A stretch of 64,000 nt of DNA from a virus (Duplodnaviria > Caudoviricetes): IMG/VR virus record IMGVR_UViG_3300035182_001315; one strand, given 5' to 3'. This document shows positions 46,944 to 62,431 of the stretch, in pieces. A program made the position numbers and the translations under genes. The notes below the pieces were generated by a model, which ran no database searches, had not been told where the DNA came from, and saw nothing but the letters and a program-made list of their open reading frames with translations. Every line of letters starts with the position of its first letter. Position 1 is the first letter of the stretch.

Positions 46944-48809
46944 TTATCTCAATTCATTTACGTTGAAGGTAGGAACACCATCTACACGAATATGCCCGTA
47001 GAAGCGGTTATTTACGACCTTTTTTGCGTAACGAGTCATGATACCCTTCACCGGAGCGAAGTTGAATGGATTGTACATTGTTGGGGTTAACTGCAACGGC
47101 ACGTAAGGTGCGTAGATATAACCTGTGTCCAAAAGTGACTTACCCTTGTGACCGATGATAACACTATACGCTGGAGCGTAAGGGTCACGGTAAACTTGGT
47201 AACGACCACCTAAAGTACCGATACGTTCGATACCCATGTTGTACTGGTCCTGTTCTGGGTTAGCGTCAGATACGTGGAAATATTCCAAGTCATCAAATAC
47301 AGCAGAGATTTCAGAAGAAACTACGATGAAGTTTGCACCACCACGTAAAGTTGACTTGTGAATCTGAGCAGAGATTTGGTTTACTCTTGTGATAAGAGTT
47401 TGGTTCCAGTCTTTCTGAGTGTATGGACTTGCAGCAGATGAAGCTTTTCTCCAACCGTTGTAATCCCAACGCAACTGCCATGCAGCAGCCTTTCTGATGT
47501 CTCTCAAGATTTCTCTGTCGATTTCAGCCGCAACCTGCTCAGACAACATAGCTGTAAGTTCAGCTTCTGCGTCGATGTTATGGAATGCGCTAACGTCTTG
47601 AGCAAGCTCTGGAGACCATGTAGCACGTAATTTTCTTTCTTCAACAGCAACAACAACTTCGTCCAATTTGAATGATACTTCACCCATTTCAGTTTCAAGT
47701 TCCAATGAAGCGTATTGGCCCCAAGCAACAGAGAAAGAAGCAGCTGATAATGATACAGAACCAGCGTAAGTTGTAGCAGATGCACCGATGTAACCATCGA
47801 ATGTAGAAGTACCCGGAGATACTAATGAACCAGCCGCAGTTGAACCAACTGGGTGAGTCAAGTCAAGACCCAAGTACAAAGTACCTGTAACGTCAGTCAA
47901 GTTCTGGTAATCTACGATACCACGACCGTACTGCTGAGTCATAAGACGGAAAGGAACTTCCTTGTTGATAGCGATAATTGTGTTACCGTCCTTATCAAGG
48001 ATTGCGCTGTTAGCGATAACGTGGATAGAAGCCAAGAAAGATTCTGTATCCATTGAGTTACCGTCAGCACCAGCAAGGATTTGCTTAGTTGCGTATGGAG
48101 TGAAACCAGTTACGCCAATGATAACCTGACGAACAGTACCATCGTTACCAGCAGCTACAGGAACACCGTTTGCGATGCTGTAATTACCAGTTGAATCCAA
48201 AGCCAATACATTGTAACCACCAGTGATGATTGTCAAAGTACCCTTAGAGTTATCGAACATACCATCGTTGTAGAATATATCGTACAAGTTCTTAGCTTGG
48301 TACTGAGTGATTGCACAACCTGTAGAGTTGATACATGATGGAAGACCTACAGCAACAACGTTACCATTGTTCATACCACCCAATGCAGTGTGTGCAGAGA
48401 AAGTAGTACCGTAGATGTCAGAAGCTGCTGTCTGAGTGTAGTCAGAACCGGCAAGACCGTTTCCGTCAACACGAGAAGATGTCTGAGGTACGAAGTAGAA
48501 CAACTTACCGATTGGCATGTTCATAGCTTGTACAGACACGATGTCGTTAGCCAAAAGCTTAGAGAATACTCTTCTCACGATAGGGAATACAACTGTTTCG
48601 AAAGAACCAGAAGACTGTGAGGTTGTAGATTCGCTCAACAAAGTTGAAGCTTGGTTTTCATACAACTGAGCAATGTTTTCCTTAACGTGTCCCTTAAGAC
48701 CTTCAAGGAAGCCAAGTGATTCCCACTTAGCTTGGGTTTCCTTACGGATAGCCTTCATGTGGTTTAAACCGATGTTACCCACTTGGCCAGATGTTAATAA
48801 ATGTGACAT
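46944..48809 (-). CDS. gp23: Major capsid protein, T4 gp23-like
   Basis: VRRVFSKLLANDIVSVQAM; RKLRATWSPELAQDV...DAEAEL...EIDREI; YAPYVPL; IMTRY. Confidence 0.97.
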   Translation of the reverse strand: MSHLLTSGQVGNIGLNHMKAIRKETQAKWESLGFLEGLKGHVKENIAQLYENQASTLLSESTTSQSSGSFETVVFPIVRRVFSKLLANDIVSVQAMNMPIGKLFYFVPQTSSRVDGNGLAGSDYTQTAASDIYGTTFSAHTALGGMNNGNVVAVGLPSCINSTGCAITQYQAKNLYDIFYNDGMFDNSKGTLTIITGGYNVLALDSTGNYSIANGVPVAAGNDGTVRQVIIGVTGFTPYATKQILAGADGNSMDTESFLASIHVIANSAILDKDGNTIIAINKEVPFRLMTQQYGRGIVDYQNLTDVTGTLYLGLDLTHPVGSTAAGSLVSPGTSTFDGYIGASATTYAGSVSLSAASFSVAWGQYASLELETEMGEVSFKLDEVVVAVEERKLRATWSPELAQDVSAFHNIDAEAELTAMLSEQVAAEIDREILRDIRKAAAWQLRWDYNGWRKASSAASPYTQKDWNQTLITRVNQISAQIHKSTLRGGANFIVVSSEISAVFDDLEYFHVSDANPEQDQYNMGIERIGTLGGRYQVYRDPYAPAYSVIIGHKGKSLLDTGYIYAPYVPLQLTPTMYNPFNFAPVKGIMTRYAKKVVNNRFYGHIRVDGVPTFNVNELR

Positions 48810-50213: not shown

Positions 50214-50224
50214 ATAAATATATC
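50214..50224 (-). promoter_or_regulatory. Putative late promoter GATATATTTAT
   Basis: Upstream of the scaffold-MCP pair. Confidence 0.55.
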
Positions 50225-50276: not shown

Positions 50277-50972
50277 TTAACCCAATAAAAAGCTATCTAA
50301 CCCCTCGTTAAGTGTACTTTTCTTCCCCTGAACGCTCTCCACATAAGGTTTTGCCTCGGCTGCATGCTTAAACATCCATGACCCCGGCGTACTTGGAGCC
50401 GTTACAATATCCCAGCAAATCAATTCAAAATCCTCTTGTACGATGAAATCACCCTTCACTTCCTTCAACGAACCAACACCTCTTGAGGAAACCCCAATCA
50501 TAATGTTGTTCCTTAAAAGGTTTGCAACCTCGTCACCCTTGGTAGAAACAATGCCGTAATTGATGTAACCCTTAGACATAAGGATTTCCATTTGGCCCAT
50601 AAGCGTATGCCCTTCCCACCAAGTCTTGATGATATTGTGGGAAATACGGTCACCGGCAATTACTGATGATTCTGGGTGATCCAATTCACCAACAGCTCTT
50701 CTTTCGTGAATAGCTTGCTGATAAATTTCATTCTGTGTCTTGAGAATATGTTCTGGGTAGATTCTTCCATTACGGTTCTTCACGTTGTACTTCTGAAGAA
50801 CAACATATACAATTAGGGTATCTGTAGCATCACCCTTTCCAGCATCCAACTTTGCGAATTCTCTTATGAGGTTTGAATTCTTTGGGTCAGTCGGAGAGAT
50901 ATAACCGGCATCCTGCTCAATTAAGTAGCCAAACCCTGTTTTACCTGCCTTTAATATTTTGATGTCATCCAT
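50277..50972 (-). CDS. gp21: Prohead core protease, T4 gp21-like
   Basis: NRNGRIYP...VGELDHP...IGVSSRGVGS...DIVTAPSTPG. Confidence 0.95.
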   Translation of the reverse strand: MDDIKILKAGKTGFGYLIEQDAGYISPTDPKNSNLIREFAKLDAGKGDATDTLIVYVVLQKYNVKNRNGRIYPEHILKTQNEIYQQAIHERRAVGELDHPESSVIAGDRISHNIIKTWWEGHTLMGQMEILMSKGYINYGIVSTKGDEVANLLRNNIMIGVSSRGVGSLKEVKGDFIVQEDFELICWDIVTAPSTPGSWMFKHAAEAKPYVESVQGKKSTLNEGLDSFLLG

Positions 50973-50988
50973 ATTTGCATATTATCTT

Positions 50989-50998
50989 AATAAATATG
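50989..50998 (-). promoter_or_regulatory. Putative late promoter CATATTTATT
   Basis: Upstream of the protease gene, after a terminator. Confidence 0.6.
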
Positions 50999-52925: not shown

Positions 52926-52935
52926 TATAAATATT
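52926..52935 (-). promoter_or_regulatory. Putative late promoter AATATTTATA
   Basis: Upstream of ATG 52909. Confidence 0.6.
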
Positions 52936-52957: not shown

Positions 52958-55024
52958 TTAATCCTTCAACATATCGTCGATATCAGAAATCATTCGATTG
53001 ATTCCCTCGTTGATTTTCACGTTCTTATTGTAAATCTTCACGTTTTCTGTTGGTTTTTCCTCACCATTTACGCTGGTAATCAGCTTATCTATGAAGATTC
53101 CGTTATATCTGGCAGTTCTCTCGTTGAGCTTTTTCTTAAGAATTTTCTTCTGTTCATTAAGAATATTGGCCCTTCTTTTAATTTGCTCTGCCGTTGGGGT
53201 TACCGGTTCTGTTCCGCCAGCCGCTGGTTCTGGAGCTTCCGCACCACCTTCAGCCGGTTCAGCTCCACCCTCTGCGCCACCTGTCGCACCGCCTTCTGGG
53301 GTCTCAGCACCTTCAGTTCCTTCCTCATCCTGACCGAAGTCCAAGTCAGTTTCTGAGGTTCCACCACCACCAAAACCACCACCTAAGCCACCGCCTCCAC
53401 CGGCAGCATCAGCACCTTCTTCACCGCCTTCTGGGGTACCGCCCTTCATCGCAGCAGTCATATCACCGTAAAGTCTGTCCACGATATCAAACATACCAGT
53501 ATGCTTGATAACTGAAGCTGTATTGGCCAATTCAGCCGCCGCAGCCTTCTCCATTCTCTGTTCAAGTAAATCCTGCTTAATTTCATTGTCAGACCAACCA
53601 AGGATTTCTCTCTTGGCTCTGGTCATAGACATAGCACCGAAACCGTTACCGGCATCAGATACAGAATCCTTATAAAGAGTCATCTTCAATTGAGAATGCT
53701 CAACCTTCAACATTTCAGCCTGTGTTGATGGGTTATTAAGAGTAAGTGTAAAATTGTCCAAGTCATCCTCGAATCCCAAAAGGTACAAGTGAATGATAAC
53801 AATCTTGTTCAATTCCTGCAACATCGTTTGCTGGATACGGTTGATGGTTCTGGAGAAACGGATATCCTGCAAGGCAAGATTCTTACCGTCACCAGTTGTT
53901 TCATCAAAGCCCAAGAACGGCTTAGGAACTCTCAATGCTGTAAACAATTTCTTCTGCAAGTACTCGATATCCGCAATCTGGTCCAAGTTAGATGCACCCG
54001 GAAGTGTATCGATTGGATTTGGAGCGTCTTCTGTTCTTACTGGAATGAAATAATCTTGGTCATTTGAAAGCTGATTGTAACGAAGGTCCATCTGGCCGGT
54101 TGCTGGGTCAACAACTGGACTTCTTTTGAACCTGTTCGCAATTTCATTTACGTATGATTCTACATCCGCTTCATCGATGTTACCAACGAAGATTTTATAG
54201 ATTCTTCTTTCTGGGGCTCTTGTTACACGGTAAACCAACATCGCATCCTCAGAAAGCAACAGCTGCTTCCAGATTCTTCTTGCTTTCTCAAGTACTGATG
54301 TACCATAAGGAAGTCTTCTGTCATCGCCAAGCAATCTGAAGTGAGCCATCTGCAATGAATTGAATTCCATGTCACGACCTCTCCAATAGAACTTAACCTT
54401 ATCTGATTTTGATGTTGTCTGGGAAGGATTCTGTGAAAGTACATCGAACAAACCACCATCTCTTCTTTCCATTTCGTAGTTCGGCATCTGCTTAGCACCA
54501 ATAATACCATTCTGGTCATCGATGTTCAAGTAAACAAAGTTGTCACCATACTTACAGGTATTACGGGTCCACATCGGTAAAGAGGTATGAATGTCCAAAC
54601 GGTTGAAGATAAGGTCTTCAACAATTCCCTTTACACGCTTACTGTCTGAGTAAACGTTCACCATTCTACCGTTAGAGTTAAGGGTAGTTGATTCTTCCAT
54701 CATGATATCCAAAGCTGCGGCGATTTCTGGGTAGAACTCCATAGCCTCGAAGTCAGAATATGAACTGATTCTGGTTGTTTCGTAGTTAACGGACTGCTGG
54801 AAAAGACCATTTTCAACCTTCTTCCAAGTTTGTCCTAAATATTTATTTTGCTGAGCCTGAAGCTTAGCTGTCTCGAATGCTGCTTTGTCGGTAGTCTTGA
54901 TAAGCACATCGTTGCCGATGTTATATCTCTGGGTCTGCGGCTTGCTGGTTTCTTTGGTCTTGAAACCTTCTGGGCCTAATATCTGACCTAATTTTTGAAA
55001 TACCGTTAGTTTTTGTTTAGCCAT
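52958..55024 (-). CDS. gp20: Portal protein, T4 gp20-like
   Basis: SVLEKARRIWKQLLLSEDAMLVYRVTRAPERRIYKIFVGN; DYFIP; IDTLPG; FQKKL-like motif. Confidence 0.95.
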   Translation of the reverse strand: MAKQKLTVFQKLGQILGPEGFKTKETSKPQTQRYNIGNDVLIKTTDKAAFETAKLQAQQNKYLGQTWKKVENGLFQQSVNYETTRISSYSDFEAMEFYPEIAAALDIMMEESTTLNSNGRMVNVYSDSKRVKGIVEDLIFNRLDIHTSLPMWTRNTCKYGDNFVYLNIDDQNGIIGAKQMPNYEMERRDGGLFDVLSQNPSQTTSKSDKVKFYWRGRDMEFNSLQMAHFRLLGDDRRLPYGTSVLEKARRIWKQLLLSEDAMLVYRVTRAPERRIYKIFVGNIDEADVESYVNEIANRFKRSPVVDPATGQMDLRYNQLSNDQDYFIPVRTEDAPNPIDTLPGASNLDQIADIEYLQKKLFTALRVPKPFLGFDETTGDGKNLALQDIRFSRTINRIQQTMLQELNKIVIIHLYLLGFEDDLDNFTLTLNNPSTQAEMLKVEHSQLKMTLYKDSVSDAGNGFGAMSMTRAKREILGWSDNEIKQDLLEQRMEKAAAAELANTASVIKHTGMFDIVDRLYGDMTAAMKGGTPEGGEEGADAAGGGGGLGGGFGGGGTSETDLDFGQDEEGTEGAETPEGGATGGAEGGAEPAEGGAEAPEPAAGGTEPVTPTAEQIKRRANILNEQKKILKKKLNERTARYNGIFIDKLITSVNGEEKPTENVKIYNKNVKINEGINRMISDIDDMLKD

Positions 55025-57141: not shown

Positions 57142-57151
57142 AATAAATATG
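57142..57151 (-). promoter_or_regulatory. Putative late promoter CATATTTATT
   Basis: TATTTAT ends 4 nt before the terminase ATG. Confidence 0.6.
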
Positions 57152-59556: not shown

Positions 59557-59968
59557 ATTTATTGGTATTGAATTCCAGTGTTAGGTCTTTTTCATACAGC
59601 TTGTCTTTTATGTCTTTGGCAAGTTCTCCAAACTTGAAGCAAAGCCTCTTGGTTGGGTATGTATCATATGCGTCGATGTATTCCCAAGCCAAAGCGATAA
59701 CGCCATCAACCGCATCCCAAACAGCGAACGAATCACTGTTTTGAACGACATCCAGCTTCAGCTCTGACTTTAACATCCCAACGCTCTTAATAAATATGTC
59801 GTGCGGCGGATGTGGTCGGCCAGATGCCGGATAAGTATCCCACTCATCACCATCAATGTCCTCAGTTATATCAGAAAAGATGAATTCATAAAGGTAATTT
59901 CCCTTATAATCTTTCCCAACCAAGTTCACATATATCAGGTACAATTCCTTCATTATTGGATATAGCAA
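59540..59968 (-). CDS. Hypothetical protein
   Basis: ORF in late operon. Confidence 0.65.
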   Translation of the reverse strand: MLYPIMKELYLIYVNLVGKDYKGNYLYEFIFSDITEDIDGDEWDTYPASGRPHPPHDIFIKSVGMLKSELKLDVVQNSDSFAVWDAVDGVIALAWEYIDAYDTYPTKRLCFKFGELAKDIKDKLYEKDLTLEFNTNKYEKQQ

Positions 59969-61375
59969 TTTAACTCGTACTTAGAACCCATGCCATAAAT
60001 CTGCATGTGTAATTGCTTTTTAGACAATTTATTGCTTTTCCATAAAGGAATAGAATAACGGTTTGATTTACCGGCATCAGGCTTAGATGGGCCAGCACCA
60101 ATAATATCATCCCAATCATTCATATCGATTCTGTAGCCTTGGTCTTCAGCATATTTTTTACCAGCGTATGTAGCATTTGCAAATATCTCATGGTAAAGTG
60201 GATAGTCGTATTTTGCCTCATCCAAAGCTTTAGGGTCAGGTCTAACTCCCGGTGTCACAACTGGCTGAAATGGTTTATCCCTTCTGCTTGGTTTGCTTGG
60301 AGCAGGAGTACTTGGTTTTGTTGTTGGAGCCGTTTTTGGCTTTTCTGGTGCAGGTGCTGGCATTTCTTCTTGATTAAAAGATTCCTTTAAAATTGATTTG
60401 ATACTCTCTTTATCTGCGAAGATACAAGTATTTTCTTCAATTGGCAAGTTTTCTTCTGTTTCTTCAGCTGCTTCCAACATATCATTAGACCCCAGCTGGA
60501 ACATGTTGTTCTTCTTTGGGTTATCTAAAAAAAATTGGCCTTCTTGCACCGATGGTTTTTCTACACCATATTCCTTAAGCTTAGCGAAAATCTCTTGAAG
60601 GTCTTCGTAATCAATTTCATCCTTAAGGTCATTCAAGAATTCGTTACGGTTTACCTTGCTGCTAAAAGACACAAGGCGAGTAAGAACCTGCTTAATTTGG
60701 TCAGAACCGTTATCGTAAATCTTAACAAGTTGTTGAGCGTTGTTATCGTTAAGTGACATTTCGTTCATAGCACCTTCTCCGCCTGCTGCTGGAGCTTCTG
60801 CGCCTGCTGCTGGAGCTTCTGCGGCAGCTGCTGGGGATTCGCCTGTTGGTGCTTCAGCATCAGCGCCCGGAGCCTGAGAATCGTCCACATCATCACCCTT
60901 ATCTTCATCACCCTTGTCGTCCTTGGTTTCAGCGTTGGCTGTACCAGCGGTTTCAACCTTCTTGATAATATCTGATTGGTCTTCAGCGTCCATGGTGCCG
61001 GTGTGGGATGCTGATAACAATGAGTTAATAGCAAACTTTTCCAGTTCCAAATCAGGTTGGCCTTGGGTTTCGTTGTATTTTCTTAGGGATTGTCCTAACT
61101 TACCAGTAAGTTGTTCGATGAATTTCTTTGGGTCAGATTCTTCGCTCGCTTCAACACCGGCATCAAATGGCTGGTCGTCGAAAGGCTTATCGTTACCACC
61201 GGCTGGAGCTTCACCAGTAGCTGGTGCTGTAGCATCCAATCCCAAATCAGGGGCTGCATCAGCAGCTGGGGCCGGTTCTTGAGCTGGAGCAGGGGCAGGG
61301 GTAGGGGCAGGAGTTTCACTGCCCAGCTTCAACTTGTATTTTACTTCGTTTACTTTAGGGAGTAAACTTTTTTTT
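59953..61375 (-). CDS. Acidic Pro/Ala-rich protein, probably the -1-frame C-terminal extension of 61350..62048 (fusion about 698 aa)
   Basis: Frame opens at the A9 tract; no nearby ATG; the track start is only a TTG at 61332. Confidence 0.6.
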
Positions 61376-61383
61376 TATTTTTT
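61348..61383 (-). promoter_or_regulatory. Candidate programmed -1 frameshift/slippage site A6-T-A9-G with adjacent 7-bp hairpin
   Basis: AAT AAA AAA AAA GTT; GTTTACT-CCCTAA-AGTAAAC. Confidence 0.6.
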
Positions 61384-62048
61384 CCAGAAACAACATCATC
61401 TACGATGTTATCCATTTCAGCCAAAGAAGTCTTGATTGACAAACGCCCTTCAACAACCGGAGCCTTACCATCATTATCTTCAACTTCCAACATGTCATCA
61501 ACAGCCTGTTCAACTTCAGAAAGTTCAACATCATGTCCTTCCATATCCATATCTTCGCTTTCTGAAATCATGTTACCACACTCAGAGCATTTGCCTTCGT
61601 TGATTGGTGCATGACAGCATTCGCTTTCATTAACGCTTTCGTTTGTAGCAAAACCTTCACCAAAAGCAACATTCTCAGAAAGATTGTCGTTTTCGAATAC
61701 GTTGATTTGACCAGACTTGCCCAAAGCTTCGTTTAAGCTATTGAACTTAAGGTTCAAGAACTTGATAGCCTTAGCGTAAGAAGGGTGAGCATGAGACTTC
61801 TTGTTCTGAAGTCCGCCGATGTATTTGAAATCCTCAGAAAGGATGTTATCCTTCTTATCAGTAACCTTGATGTAATACTCGTGGTTTTCACGAACAATAC
61901 CATAAACGTTACCGTCTGGACCTACCTTGGTAAGCTCAACAGTTGAGGTTGAATGATTCTTGTTAAGAGTAGTAATACCCATTAACTCCTTCATACGTTC
62001 GTTAATTTCTTGGCCTTTTAAACCAACTGGACTGATTCTATCTTTCAT
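61350..62048 (-). CDS. Putative prohead core/internal protein (short, 0-frame product)
   Basis: Many xxE motifs; CC...CSEC; late motif upstream. Confidence 0.7.
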   Translation of the reverse strand: MKDRISPVGLKGQEINERMKELMGITTLNKNHSTSTVELTKVGPDGNVYGIVRENHEYYIKVTDKKDNILSEDFKYIGGLQNKKSHAHPSYAKAIKFLNLKFNSLNEALGKSGQINVFENDNLSENVAFGEGFATNESVNESECCHAPINEGKCSECGNMISESEDMDMEGHDVELSEVEQAVDDMLEVEDNDGKAPVVEGRLSIKTSLAEMDNIVDDVVSGKNKKKVYSLK

Positions 62049-62066
62049 AAAAGTGTTTTATTTTAA

Positions 62067-62076
62067 TATAAATATG
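62067..62076 (-). promoter_or_regulatory. Putative late promoter CATATTTATA
   Basis: Upstream of ATG 62048. Confidence 0.65.
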
Positions 62077-62380: not shown

Positions 62381-62406
62381 AAAAAAGGCTCCAAAACGGA
62401 GCCTTT
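62381..62406 (-). terminator. Rho-independent terminator
   Basis: AAAGGCTCC-AAAAC-GGAGCCTTT. Confidence 0.85.
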
Positions 62407-62431
62407 CTTTAAACTTATGTTCTGTAAAAGC

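Follow-up and report, generated by a model that had tools for sequence, protein, structure and literature searches.

A conserved run of A's as a probable programmed −1 recoding site joining two overlapping reading frames in uncultured T4-like phages

Gene organization around the A-B locus

The stretch of DNA analyzed here (64,000 nt, referred to below as the window) is part of an uncultured T4-like phage, whose nearest cultured relatives by capsid protein, Flavobacterium phage immuto and Microcystis phage Mel-JY01, are only 37-42% identical. The two overlapping reading frames that are the subject of this study (tentatively referred to as ORF A and ORF B) are followed on the same strand by a set of genes typed by their T4 counterparts:

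minus strand: ORF A, ORF B, then ORFs of 142, 367, and 404 aa
55324-57138, minus strand: large terminase (TerL)
52958-55024, minus strand: gp20-type portal
50277-50972, minus strand: gp21-type protease
minus strand, between the protease and the capsid gene in the listed order: scaffold-position gene
46944-48809, minus strand: gp23-type capsid protein

The A-B gene is located five genes upstream of the TerL and portal genes and on the same strand, and in relatives the upstream neighbor of A encodes a thymidylate synthase. A strong terminator (62409..62381) precedes the A-B unit. The promoter-like motif ATATTTAT is present in 24 copies in the window (5.2 ± 2.1 expected), among them copies just upstream of ORF A and of the TerL, protease, and scaffold genes, and of 71 related loci, 43 likewise have it ahead of ORF A; between A and B in the window, neither this motif nor a terminator was found. 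The gene position and the shared ATATTTAT motif together suggest that A-B is a late, head-module protein. Host assignment from MAG bins was also tried and set aside, as the labels are scattered across Methanobacterium, Spirochaetia, Bacteroidales, Paceibacterota, and others, and are therefore unreliable.

Anatomy of the junction

The junction between the two frames comprises the following features, all on the minus strand:

62068..62075, minus strand: ATATTTAT promoter-like motif, 20 nt 5' of the ORF A ATG
61350..62048, minus strand: ORF A, ATG-initiated, 232 aa, the short product (25.7 kDa, pI 4.86)
61350..62048, minus strand: within ORF A, a C-terminus made of an invariant KKK (residues 225-227) and then VYSLK
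61375..61377, minus strand: TAA closing the −1 frame, formed by a T and the first two A's of the run
61368..61376, minus strand: A9 run, in frame as AAA AAA AAA, the predicted slip site
61374..61368, minus strand: heptamer A_AAA_AAA inside the A9 run, in X_XXY_YYZ phase
59953..61374, minus strand: ORF B in the −1 frame, 473 codons from the frame opening, without a conserved start of its own
61348..61367, minus strand: 7-bp hairpin, GTTTACT / 6-nt loop / AGTAAAC, abutting the run
61350..61352, minus strand: 0-frame stop TAA, 15 nt past the run, ending the short product
61324..61353, minus strand: conserved −1 frame motif V-N-E-V-K-Y-K-L-K-L

In minus-strand letters the junction reads GGA AAA AAT AAA AAA AAA GTT TAC TCC CTA AAG TAA, and the A9 run and the 0-frame stop, five codons past the run, are exactly as described in the first-pass annotation of this DNA. 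From its opening in the run at 61374, the −1 frame reads K K S L L P K V N E V K Y K L K L and continues to a stop at 59953. As that annotation had also stated, it has no early ATG. Its sole canonical start is TTG 61332..61330, from which ORF finders give B as a 459-aa ORF; the first in-frame ATG of B comes around residues 60-125, past the conserved region. Because the TAA at 61377..61375 shuts the −1 frame just before and within the run, a shift from one frame to the other must fall inside the run itself.

The two products computed from these frames are 232 and 698 aa, matching the sizes that had been predicted (232 and about 698 aa). The long product would be a protein of 76.2 kDa (pI 4.60) with the junction KKK-SLLPKVNEVKYKLKL, B being joined at a Ser codon (AGT 61368..61366), and transcripts carrying A8 or A11 are predicted to give products of 230-231 aa.

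Distribution of the split state and of the run in related phages

IMG/VR was searched with A and with B, which gave 138 loci, and 78 distinct junctions were compared among them. The run of A's and the split ORF, for which the first-pass annotation had recommended a check in related phages, are both kept: 76 of the 78 junctions have B in frame −1 relative to A, with an overlap of 13-64 nt, and all 76 split loci carry the run within the overlap (A9 in 9 loci, A10 in 65, and A11 in 2, with none below 9). The run is present in the two exceptions as well: in L136 it is one A longer, so that A and B form one ORF, and L119 shares its site with L014 and has, in addition, an unrelated break further upstream.

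The comparison was extended to 841 A-family clusters (50% identity) by scanning 1.84 billion cluster representatives. Among the best 150 A-family representatives of these 841 clusters, the protein ends within at most nine residues after KKK in 101, eight retain KKK in an in-frame fusion, 19 are continuous A-B proteins that lack it, and the remaining 22 are truncated or otherwise different; the split form accounts for 101 of the 109 run-bearing representatives in this set. Residues K225-K227 are invariant in alignment A1, which contains 76 representatives.

A tree of the N-terminal domain places the window in a well-supported clade with 57 rows; 50 of these rows are split, and there are no fused ones among them. 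Of the 19 continuous run-less forms, 15 group in one separate clade (support 97/93), and five of the eight in-frame run-bearing forms belong to one nine-member clade. The split state was seen in JGI, ENA, and Logan assemblies and at run lengths of 9, 10, and 11. An independent contig (L147), reached through a search with the ORF B protein and 99.8% identical to the window, also carries A9, and a contig of this identity is in JGI sample 3300035661; exact-pattern scans for the junction of this phage with any run length gave no match in metagenome_contigs or viral_contigs.

Besides the split form, several other arrangements occur in the family. A continuous orthologue of 650 aa (L145/L146) has the same gene order up to TerL and a junction without the A run, and a distant relative (L156) has a separate B gene that shares a TAATG stop-start overlap with A and is preceded by a 20-residue leader of its own. 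The first-pass annotation had regarded continuous homologues, or homologues in which B has its own start, as evidence against recoding. Such homologues do exist, but all belong to distant clades, and they leave the predicted recoding in the clade of the window unrefuted. Lineages with the long form in frame keep A10 or A11, and in the frame that the loss of one A would bring into use, the stop at a distance of 3 nt has been preserved too; the run is thus maintained whichever product is templated. In another distant sub-lineage (L159-L163 and L153), the site is A_AAT_TTT or A_AAT_TTC with a stop directly after it, and a −1 shift is still needed although there is no homopolymer, while L154 has A7 only, in phase. 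Most of the distant relatives are from IMG/VR viral contigs, and some are from MAG-binned genome contigs.

Selection on both reading frames and on the run

In 63 of 71 loci, the stretch from where the B frame opens up to the conserved K-Y-K-L-K motif contains no in-frame ATG, GTG, or TTG. At the position of the TTG in the window, these 71 loci have TTG (39), CTG (12), TTA (10), CTA (8), or CTT (2), and since the position varies among Leu codons, TTG 61332 is a Leu codon of the conserved motif, not a start. The −1 peptide is conserved as [ST]L.E..K[YF].LK from the first codon past the run, that is, within the overlap, with a family pattern at the junction of [LIVM]-x-E, then one or two residues, then K-[YF]-K-L-K, and B as a whole is conserved across hundreds of clusters.

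The 0 frame is constrained as well. In the clade with a 15-nt overlap, the entropy by 0-frame codon position is 0.68/0.45/1.36, with the variation at third positions, and the tail VYTLK followed by the stop is encoded by nine different DNA versions, while the overlapping −1 peptides all differ. This constraint on the 0-frame tail argues that the short product is also real. Taken together, the substitution patterns indicate that both frames adjoining the run are under purifying selection.

The run itself is unusual in the genome that carries it. The A9 is the only A/T run of at least nine in the 64 kb window, and runs of A8 are about three-fold depleted (8 found versus 22.2 ± 6.1 expected). AAA makes up 42% of the Lys codons in this phage, AAG being preferred, and of its 15 Lys-Lys-Lys triplets only the one at the slip site is coded by A9; for KKK outside this gene in the related loci, A9 coding was found in 6 of 125 cases versus 64.9 expected. 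In 61 of 74 loci, the three AAA codons follow a codon whose last base is A (baseline 0.39), and where that codon is Val it is always GTA (11/11; baseline 0.28). The run is, by these codon statistics, selected as nucleotides and for length, beyond what coding needs.

The first-pass annotation had proposed a programmed −1 event, either ribosomal or transcriptional, at the A run that would yield a short and a long form, and the conservation described above strongly supports this proposal: the A9 run in the window is very probably a programmed −1 recoding site giving 232-aa and 698-aa forms.

RNA structure flanking the run

The perfect 7-bp hairpin abutting the run, with the 0-frame stop in its 3' arm, had been put forward as a potential part of the signal. 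It does exist in the window (61367..61348; dG −6.1 kcal/mol, z −0.95 versus shuffles of its 45 nt), with a stability that is ordinary for such a base composition, but it is not conserved. Stems of at least 5 bp starting no more than 2 nt from the run occur in 10 of 77 loci versus 5.9 ± 2.1 in shuffles, and those of at least 6 bp near the run in six of the 77 versus 2.0 ± 1.4; in 27 of the 77 loci there is no stem at all, and for the 45 nt following the run the 77 loci give a median z-score of 0. We therefore rejected the hairpin as a family-wide stimulator. As 7-bp stems of differing sequence are found in a few loci (the window, L024, and L029), the hairpin may have a local modulating role in some of them.

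A nascent-RNA hairpin adjoining the run on its upstream side was rejected likewise, with upstream stems in 26 of 77 loci versus 19.4 ± 3.6 in shuffles; the upstream 10-bp stem of the window ends 11 nt before the run. Neither upstream nor downstream was a conserved RNA structure flanking the run found in the 77 loci. We also considered whether the reverse complement of the hairpin and run could act as a plus-strand terminator, but it was not flagged by the terminator scan, and the neighboring genes are all on the minus strand.

Slippage by RNA polymerase or by the ribosome

Read without a slip, the A9 mRNA would yield the 232-aa protein A ending in KKKVYSLK, and a minority of products would go on in the −1 frame from the run to give the 698-aa A-B fusion. 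Transcriptional slippage and −1 ribosomal frameshifting yield the same protein, and the site has the sequence-level features of both classes; the usual ribosomal stimulators, namely a structure 5-9 nt downstream and an upstream SD-like element, are absent from it. Such a structure or SD-like element is usual for a −1 frameshift but not obligatory, and low-efficiency frameshifts such as that of lambda G/GT are not known to need a stimulator.

On balance, from indirect evidence and with only modest confidence, we favor slippage by RNA polymerase as the main route in the window. The polymerase would slip on the run and add one A to part of the transcripts, which would then be translated normally, and ribosomal −1 slippage on A_AAA_AAA would probably add to the yield. 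Polymerase slippage is favored because the length of the run is selected and no flanking structure is conserved. The run that is conserved has at least nine A's, usually ten, whereas a ribosomal heptamer needs only seven, and its retention in lineages that template the long form speaks for the polymerase too. The RNA polymerase of E. coli, the bacterial enzyme tested, slips detectably only from about eight A's (PMC6260861), and runs of nine A's or T's are the sites of programmed slippage in Thermus dnaX and in Shigella genes (PMC5009743). That the polymerase and not the ribosome is the main shifter is an inference, and so are the ratio of the two forms and any function.

Instead of the polymerase, the main source of both products may be programmed −1 ribosomal frameshifting on A_AAA_AAA (61374..61368), with both Lys tRNAs re-pairing one base back on an mRNA that carries the templated A9, an account that we consider a strong rival, although the less likely of the two. 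This heptamer has the right X_XXY_YYZ phase and coincides with the opening of the −1 frame, and all 76 split loci need a −1 shift while none needs +1. This −1-only pattern also fits insertion-biased slippage. The heteropolymeric heptamers of L159-L163 and L153 and the A7 of L154 further indicate that ribosomal frameshifting operates somewhere in the family, and, going by lambda G/GT, a weak shift may work without a stimulator. Seven A's would however suffice for the ribosome, yet the main-clade loci all have at least nine, and the bias towards a preceding codon ending in A points to selection for extension to ten. There is no downstream stimulatory structure conserved at any spacing, the hairpin in the window having a spacer of 0 nt, and an SD-like stimulator is unlikely, since the leaders in these phages are A-rich and without Shine-Dalgarno sequences. 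At A9-A11, some polymerase slippage is expected in any case (PMC5009743, PMC6260861).

Run-length variation and independent translation of ORF B

Two further explanations would dispense with recoding altogether. In one of them, the split reflects variation of the run at the DNA level, be it phase variation caused by slippage in replication or an assembly error in the homopolymer, and A-B is a single real ORF in part or all of the genomes. Run length does flip between lineages, as a run one A longer puts A and B in frame in the eight fusions among the best 150 representatives of the 841 clusters and in loci L136, L139, and L141-L143. Nevertheless, 76 of 78 loci have the split as their consensus, with many samples, assemblers, and sources represented, and it holds alike at runs of 9, 10, and 11, while the third frame never appears as a consensus. 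Purifying selection on the 0-frame tail also speaks against this explanation, and the clustering of the in-frame cases, five of eight in one nine-member clade, argues for fixed states rather than random error. With the −1 split and the run in 76 of 78 loci and A9 in the near-identical but independent contig L147, the explanation by error is excluded, and we regard DNA-level variation in general as very improbable.

Least probable of all is that no fusion is made and ORF B is translated alone, with ribosomes initiating internally or reinitiating after termination, at TTG 61332 or a non-canonical codon: the separate B gene of L156, with its TAATG overlap and own leader, indicates that B can be made apart from A, and a weak sigma-70-like match overlaps the junction, but in most loci (63/71) the conserved motif is not preceded by a canonical start, different non-start Leu codons occupy the TTG position, the −1 conservation begins at the first codon past the run and inside the overlap, and the first in-frame ATG of B (residues 60-125) lies past the conserved region.

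Comparison with known recoding systems

A close counterpart of the predicted programmed site is dnaX (tau/gamma) of Thermus thermophilus, which likewise has an A9 in its coding region, a long and a short protein sharing the N-terminus, stops close by in the alternative frames, and no elaborate stimulator, and in which the two proteins come from mRNAs that differ in run length (PMC5009743). The phage site would work like Thermus dnaX, the Shigella spa/mxi genes, or Citrobacter tssM if it is the polymerase that slips, and like E. coli dnaX or the IS orfAB sites if it is the ribosome. Thermus dnaX templates the long form, as do some lineages of the phage family, in which the short form would then arise by slippage, whereas in the window it is the short form that is templated. 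The dnaX product is a cellular clamp loader of an unrelated family, while the phage gene is a probable late gene without an assigned role, and slippage has been shown by experiment for dnaX and is deduced from sequence for the phage.

[quoted passage not shown] Those sites, however, consist of a 7-nt heptamer ending in G with an upstream SD-like element and a downstream stem-loop (PMC5009743), while the invariant feature of the phage site is a run of at least nine A's, with no conserved flanking element. Overlapping ORFs on a homopolymer of about 9-11 bases are also found in Shigella spa13, mxiE, and related type III secretion genes and in Citrobacter tssM, where polymerase slippage fuses the ORFs in a fraction of the products (PMC5009743, PMC4256274). 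These are bacterial secretion genes with a narrow taxonomic spread, in contrast to the phage site, which extends over hundreds of protein clusters.

Among phages, lambda G/GT, T7 gp10A/10B, and the major head protein of Lactobacillus phage A2 resemble the proposed A-B system in that a late gene yields a short form and, via a −1 event, a C-terminally extended one at a set ratio (PMC5009743; PMC10885494). In these cases, however, it is the ribosome that shifts, on a heteropolymeric heptamer, and the roles of the proteins are known. The A-B protein has no detectable relation to lambda G/GT, T7 gp10, or the A2 head protein, and its gene is upstream of the terminase gene rather than in a tail module.

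Predicted proteins and possible function

The AlphaFold model of A has an N-terminal domain of a beta-sheet plus helix (residues about 30-120, pLDDT above 90), followed by an acidic, poorly ordered segment and then a helix before KKK. The model of B (472 aa) contains a four-helix domain (210-267) and a C-terminal alpha/beta domain (390-472), with pLDDT above 94, and B further has Pro/Ala-rich linkers plus a conserved helical region.

Neither A nor B of the window has a match in Pfam or PHROGs; members of the family match only PHROGs without known function, and the protein atlas contains only unnamed viral clusters for A/B. Structure searches with Foldseek (PDB, BFVD) and VIA-align (PDB representatives) had no hit that exceeded chance level, the best Z-scores being 5.5 and 6.1. 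The A domain has a weak resemblance to dsRNA-binding domains (Foldseek probability 0.5). In 50,697 phage records, blastn and tblastn with the region and with ORF A as queries found no match, and there was none for the continuous orthologue P0226 against cultured phage records; the C-terminal domain of B alone matches a hypothetical protein of Methylophilales phage Melnitz. The designation "prohead-core protein" in the first-pass annotation is a guess from gene position, and these family and structure searches gave no match that would link A-B to T4 IPI-III, gp67, gp68, gp22, or Alt.

A possible clue to function is the pattern [LIVM]-x-E, which is located one or two residues before K[YF]KLK in all 56 of 56 junction peptides, is also present in the continuous orthologues, and ends the 20-residue leader of B in L156. 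L/I-x-E is the consensus cleaved by the T4 prohead protease gp21. We speculate, as a rather unlikely reading, that A is a cleavable delivery module and B a cargo freed in the head at [LIVM]-x-E, in which case the polymerase slipping on the run would set the share of A that bears cargo. The idea of a cleavable module is testable, because L/I-x-E is the gp21 consensus and a gp21 homologue is encoded by this phage.

Significance for phage annotation and recoding

Full-text searches on slippage and frameshifting, covering T4-like and other phages, turned up no account of this family. The type of mechanism is already known and the gene family is undescribed, so the present result is one for annotation and for the catalogue of recoding sites rather than a new principle. 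In every assembly, gene callers divide A-B into two "hypothetical proteins", the second of which is falsely started at TTG, and the predicted real product of 698 aa is consequently missing from all databases. The family affected comprises more than 800 clusters from aquatic, soil, and gut phages, and for homopolymer recoding in phages its site is a natural example with unusually good replication.

Sister lineages with a plain heptamer, a continuous ORF, or separate genes offer a comparative system for polymerase versus ribosome recoding. If A does deliver B as a cargo, the same outcome would be reached across the family in four interchangeable ways, namely by a continuous ORF, by an A9-11 run in which either frame may be templated, by a classical heptamer, and by separate coupled genes, and the family would then represent a natural series in which recoding by polymerase and by ribosome can be compared.

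Transcription and translation signals around ORF A

The gene for the 232-aa short product, ORF A, is preceded by an 85-aa ORF, and between this ORF and a 243-aa gene lies a strong intrinsic terminator, which marks the beginning of a new transcription unit. Within the window, the octamer ATATTTAT occurs in 24 copies, against 5.2 +/- 2.1 expected, and precedes the starts of head-module genes, ORF A among them, at distances from a few to a few tens of bases. In 43 of 71 related loci, the same octamer likewise lies ahead of ORF A; it is probably a late-type promoter element. The terminator and some of the octamer copies are as follows:

62381-62409, minus strand: intrinsic terminator with a T run after its 13-bp stem
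62068-62075, 57143-57150, 52927-52934, 50990-50997 and 50214-50221, among others, minus strand: octamer ATATTTAT

The leaders ahead of the start codons, both in the window (62030-62075) and in the regions upstream of ORF A in the related loci L001-L046, are A/T-rich and lack Shine-Dalgarno sequences. Such leaders are typically seen in phages of hosts that lack Shine-Dalgarno-led initiation, e.g., Bacteroidota. The MAG bin labels of the related contigs are scattered and do not give a reliable host.

Variation of the A/B junction among relatives

The junction between ORF A and the -1 frame ORF B takes several other forms in related loci (designated by L-numbers), as listed below:

L159:4010-4040, and likewise L160-L163 and L153: junction without a poly(A) run
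L142:638-2899: 753-aa in-frame member with two long A runs
L119:3674-3700: additional A runs and a frame break
L156:3600-3615: TAATG, the ATG of ORF B overlapping the stop of A

L159-L163 and L153 form one distant sub-lineage, in which the place of the poly(A) run is taken by A_AAT_TTT with the stop TAA after it, or by A_AAT_TTC with the stop TGA after it, and ORF B remains in the -1 frame. By its sequence, this homologous junction is a classical ribosomal frameshift cassette.

Two other relatives carry additional runs. L142 has an A11 at codon 254 and an A10 at codon 417, and each comes after a similar "...GAATCA..." context, which suggests that a module was duplicated and that a second site is prone to slippage. 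L119 contains an L014-type junction site, plus an extra A7 and A9 within ORF A, the frame of which is prematurely broken upstream; these may represent either a second site of slippage or an error in the assembly.

In the distant relative L156, ORF B has its own ATG, and the A and B modules are separate genes with translational coupling.

A conserved tripeptide at the A/B boundary

The tripeptide [LIVM]-x-E was found at the A/B boundary in all 56 of 56 junctions, 1-2 residues ahead of the conserved K[YF]KLK motif near the start of ORF B. Its instance in the window is:

61345-61353, -1 frame: V-N-E

Continuous A-B orthologues also keep [LIVM]-x-E ahead of K[YF]KLK, and in L156 the 20-residue leader of ORF B ends in L-L-E, followed by the conserved motif. 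At the sequence level, this boundary tripeptide resembles the cleavage consensus of the T4 prohead protease.
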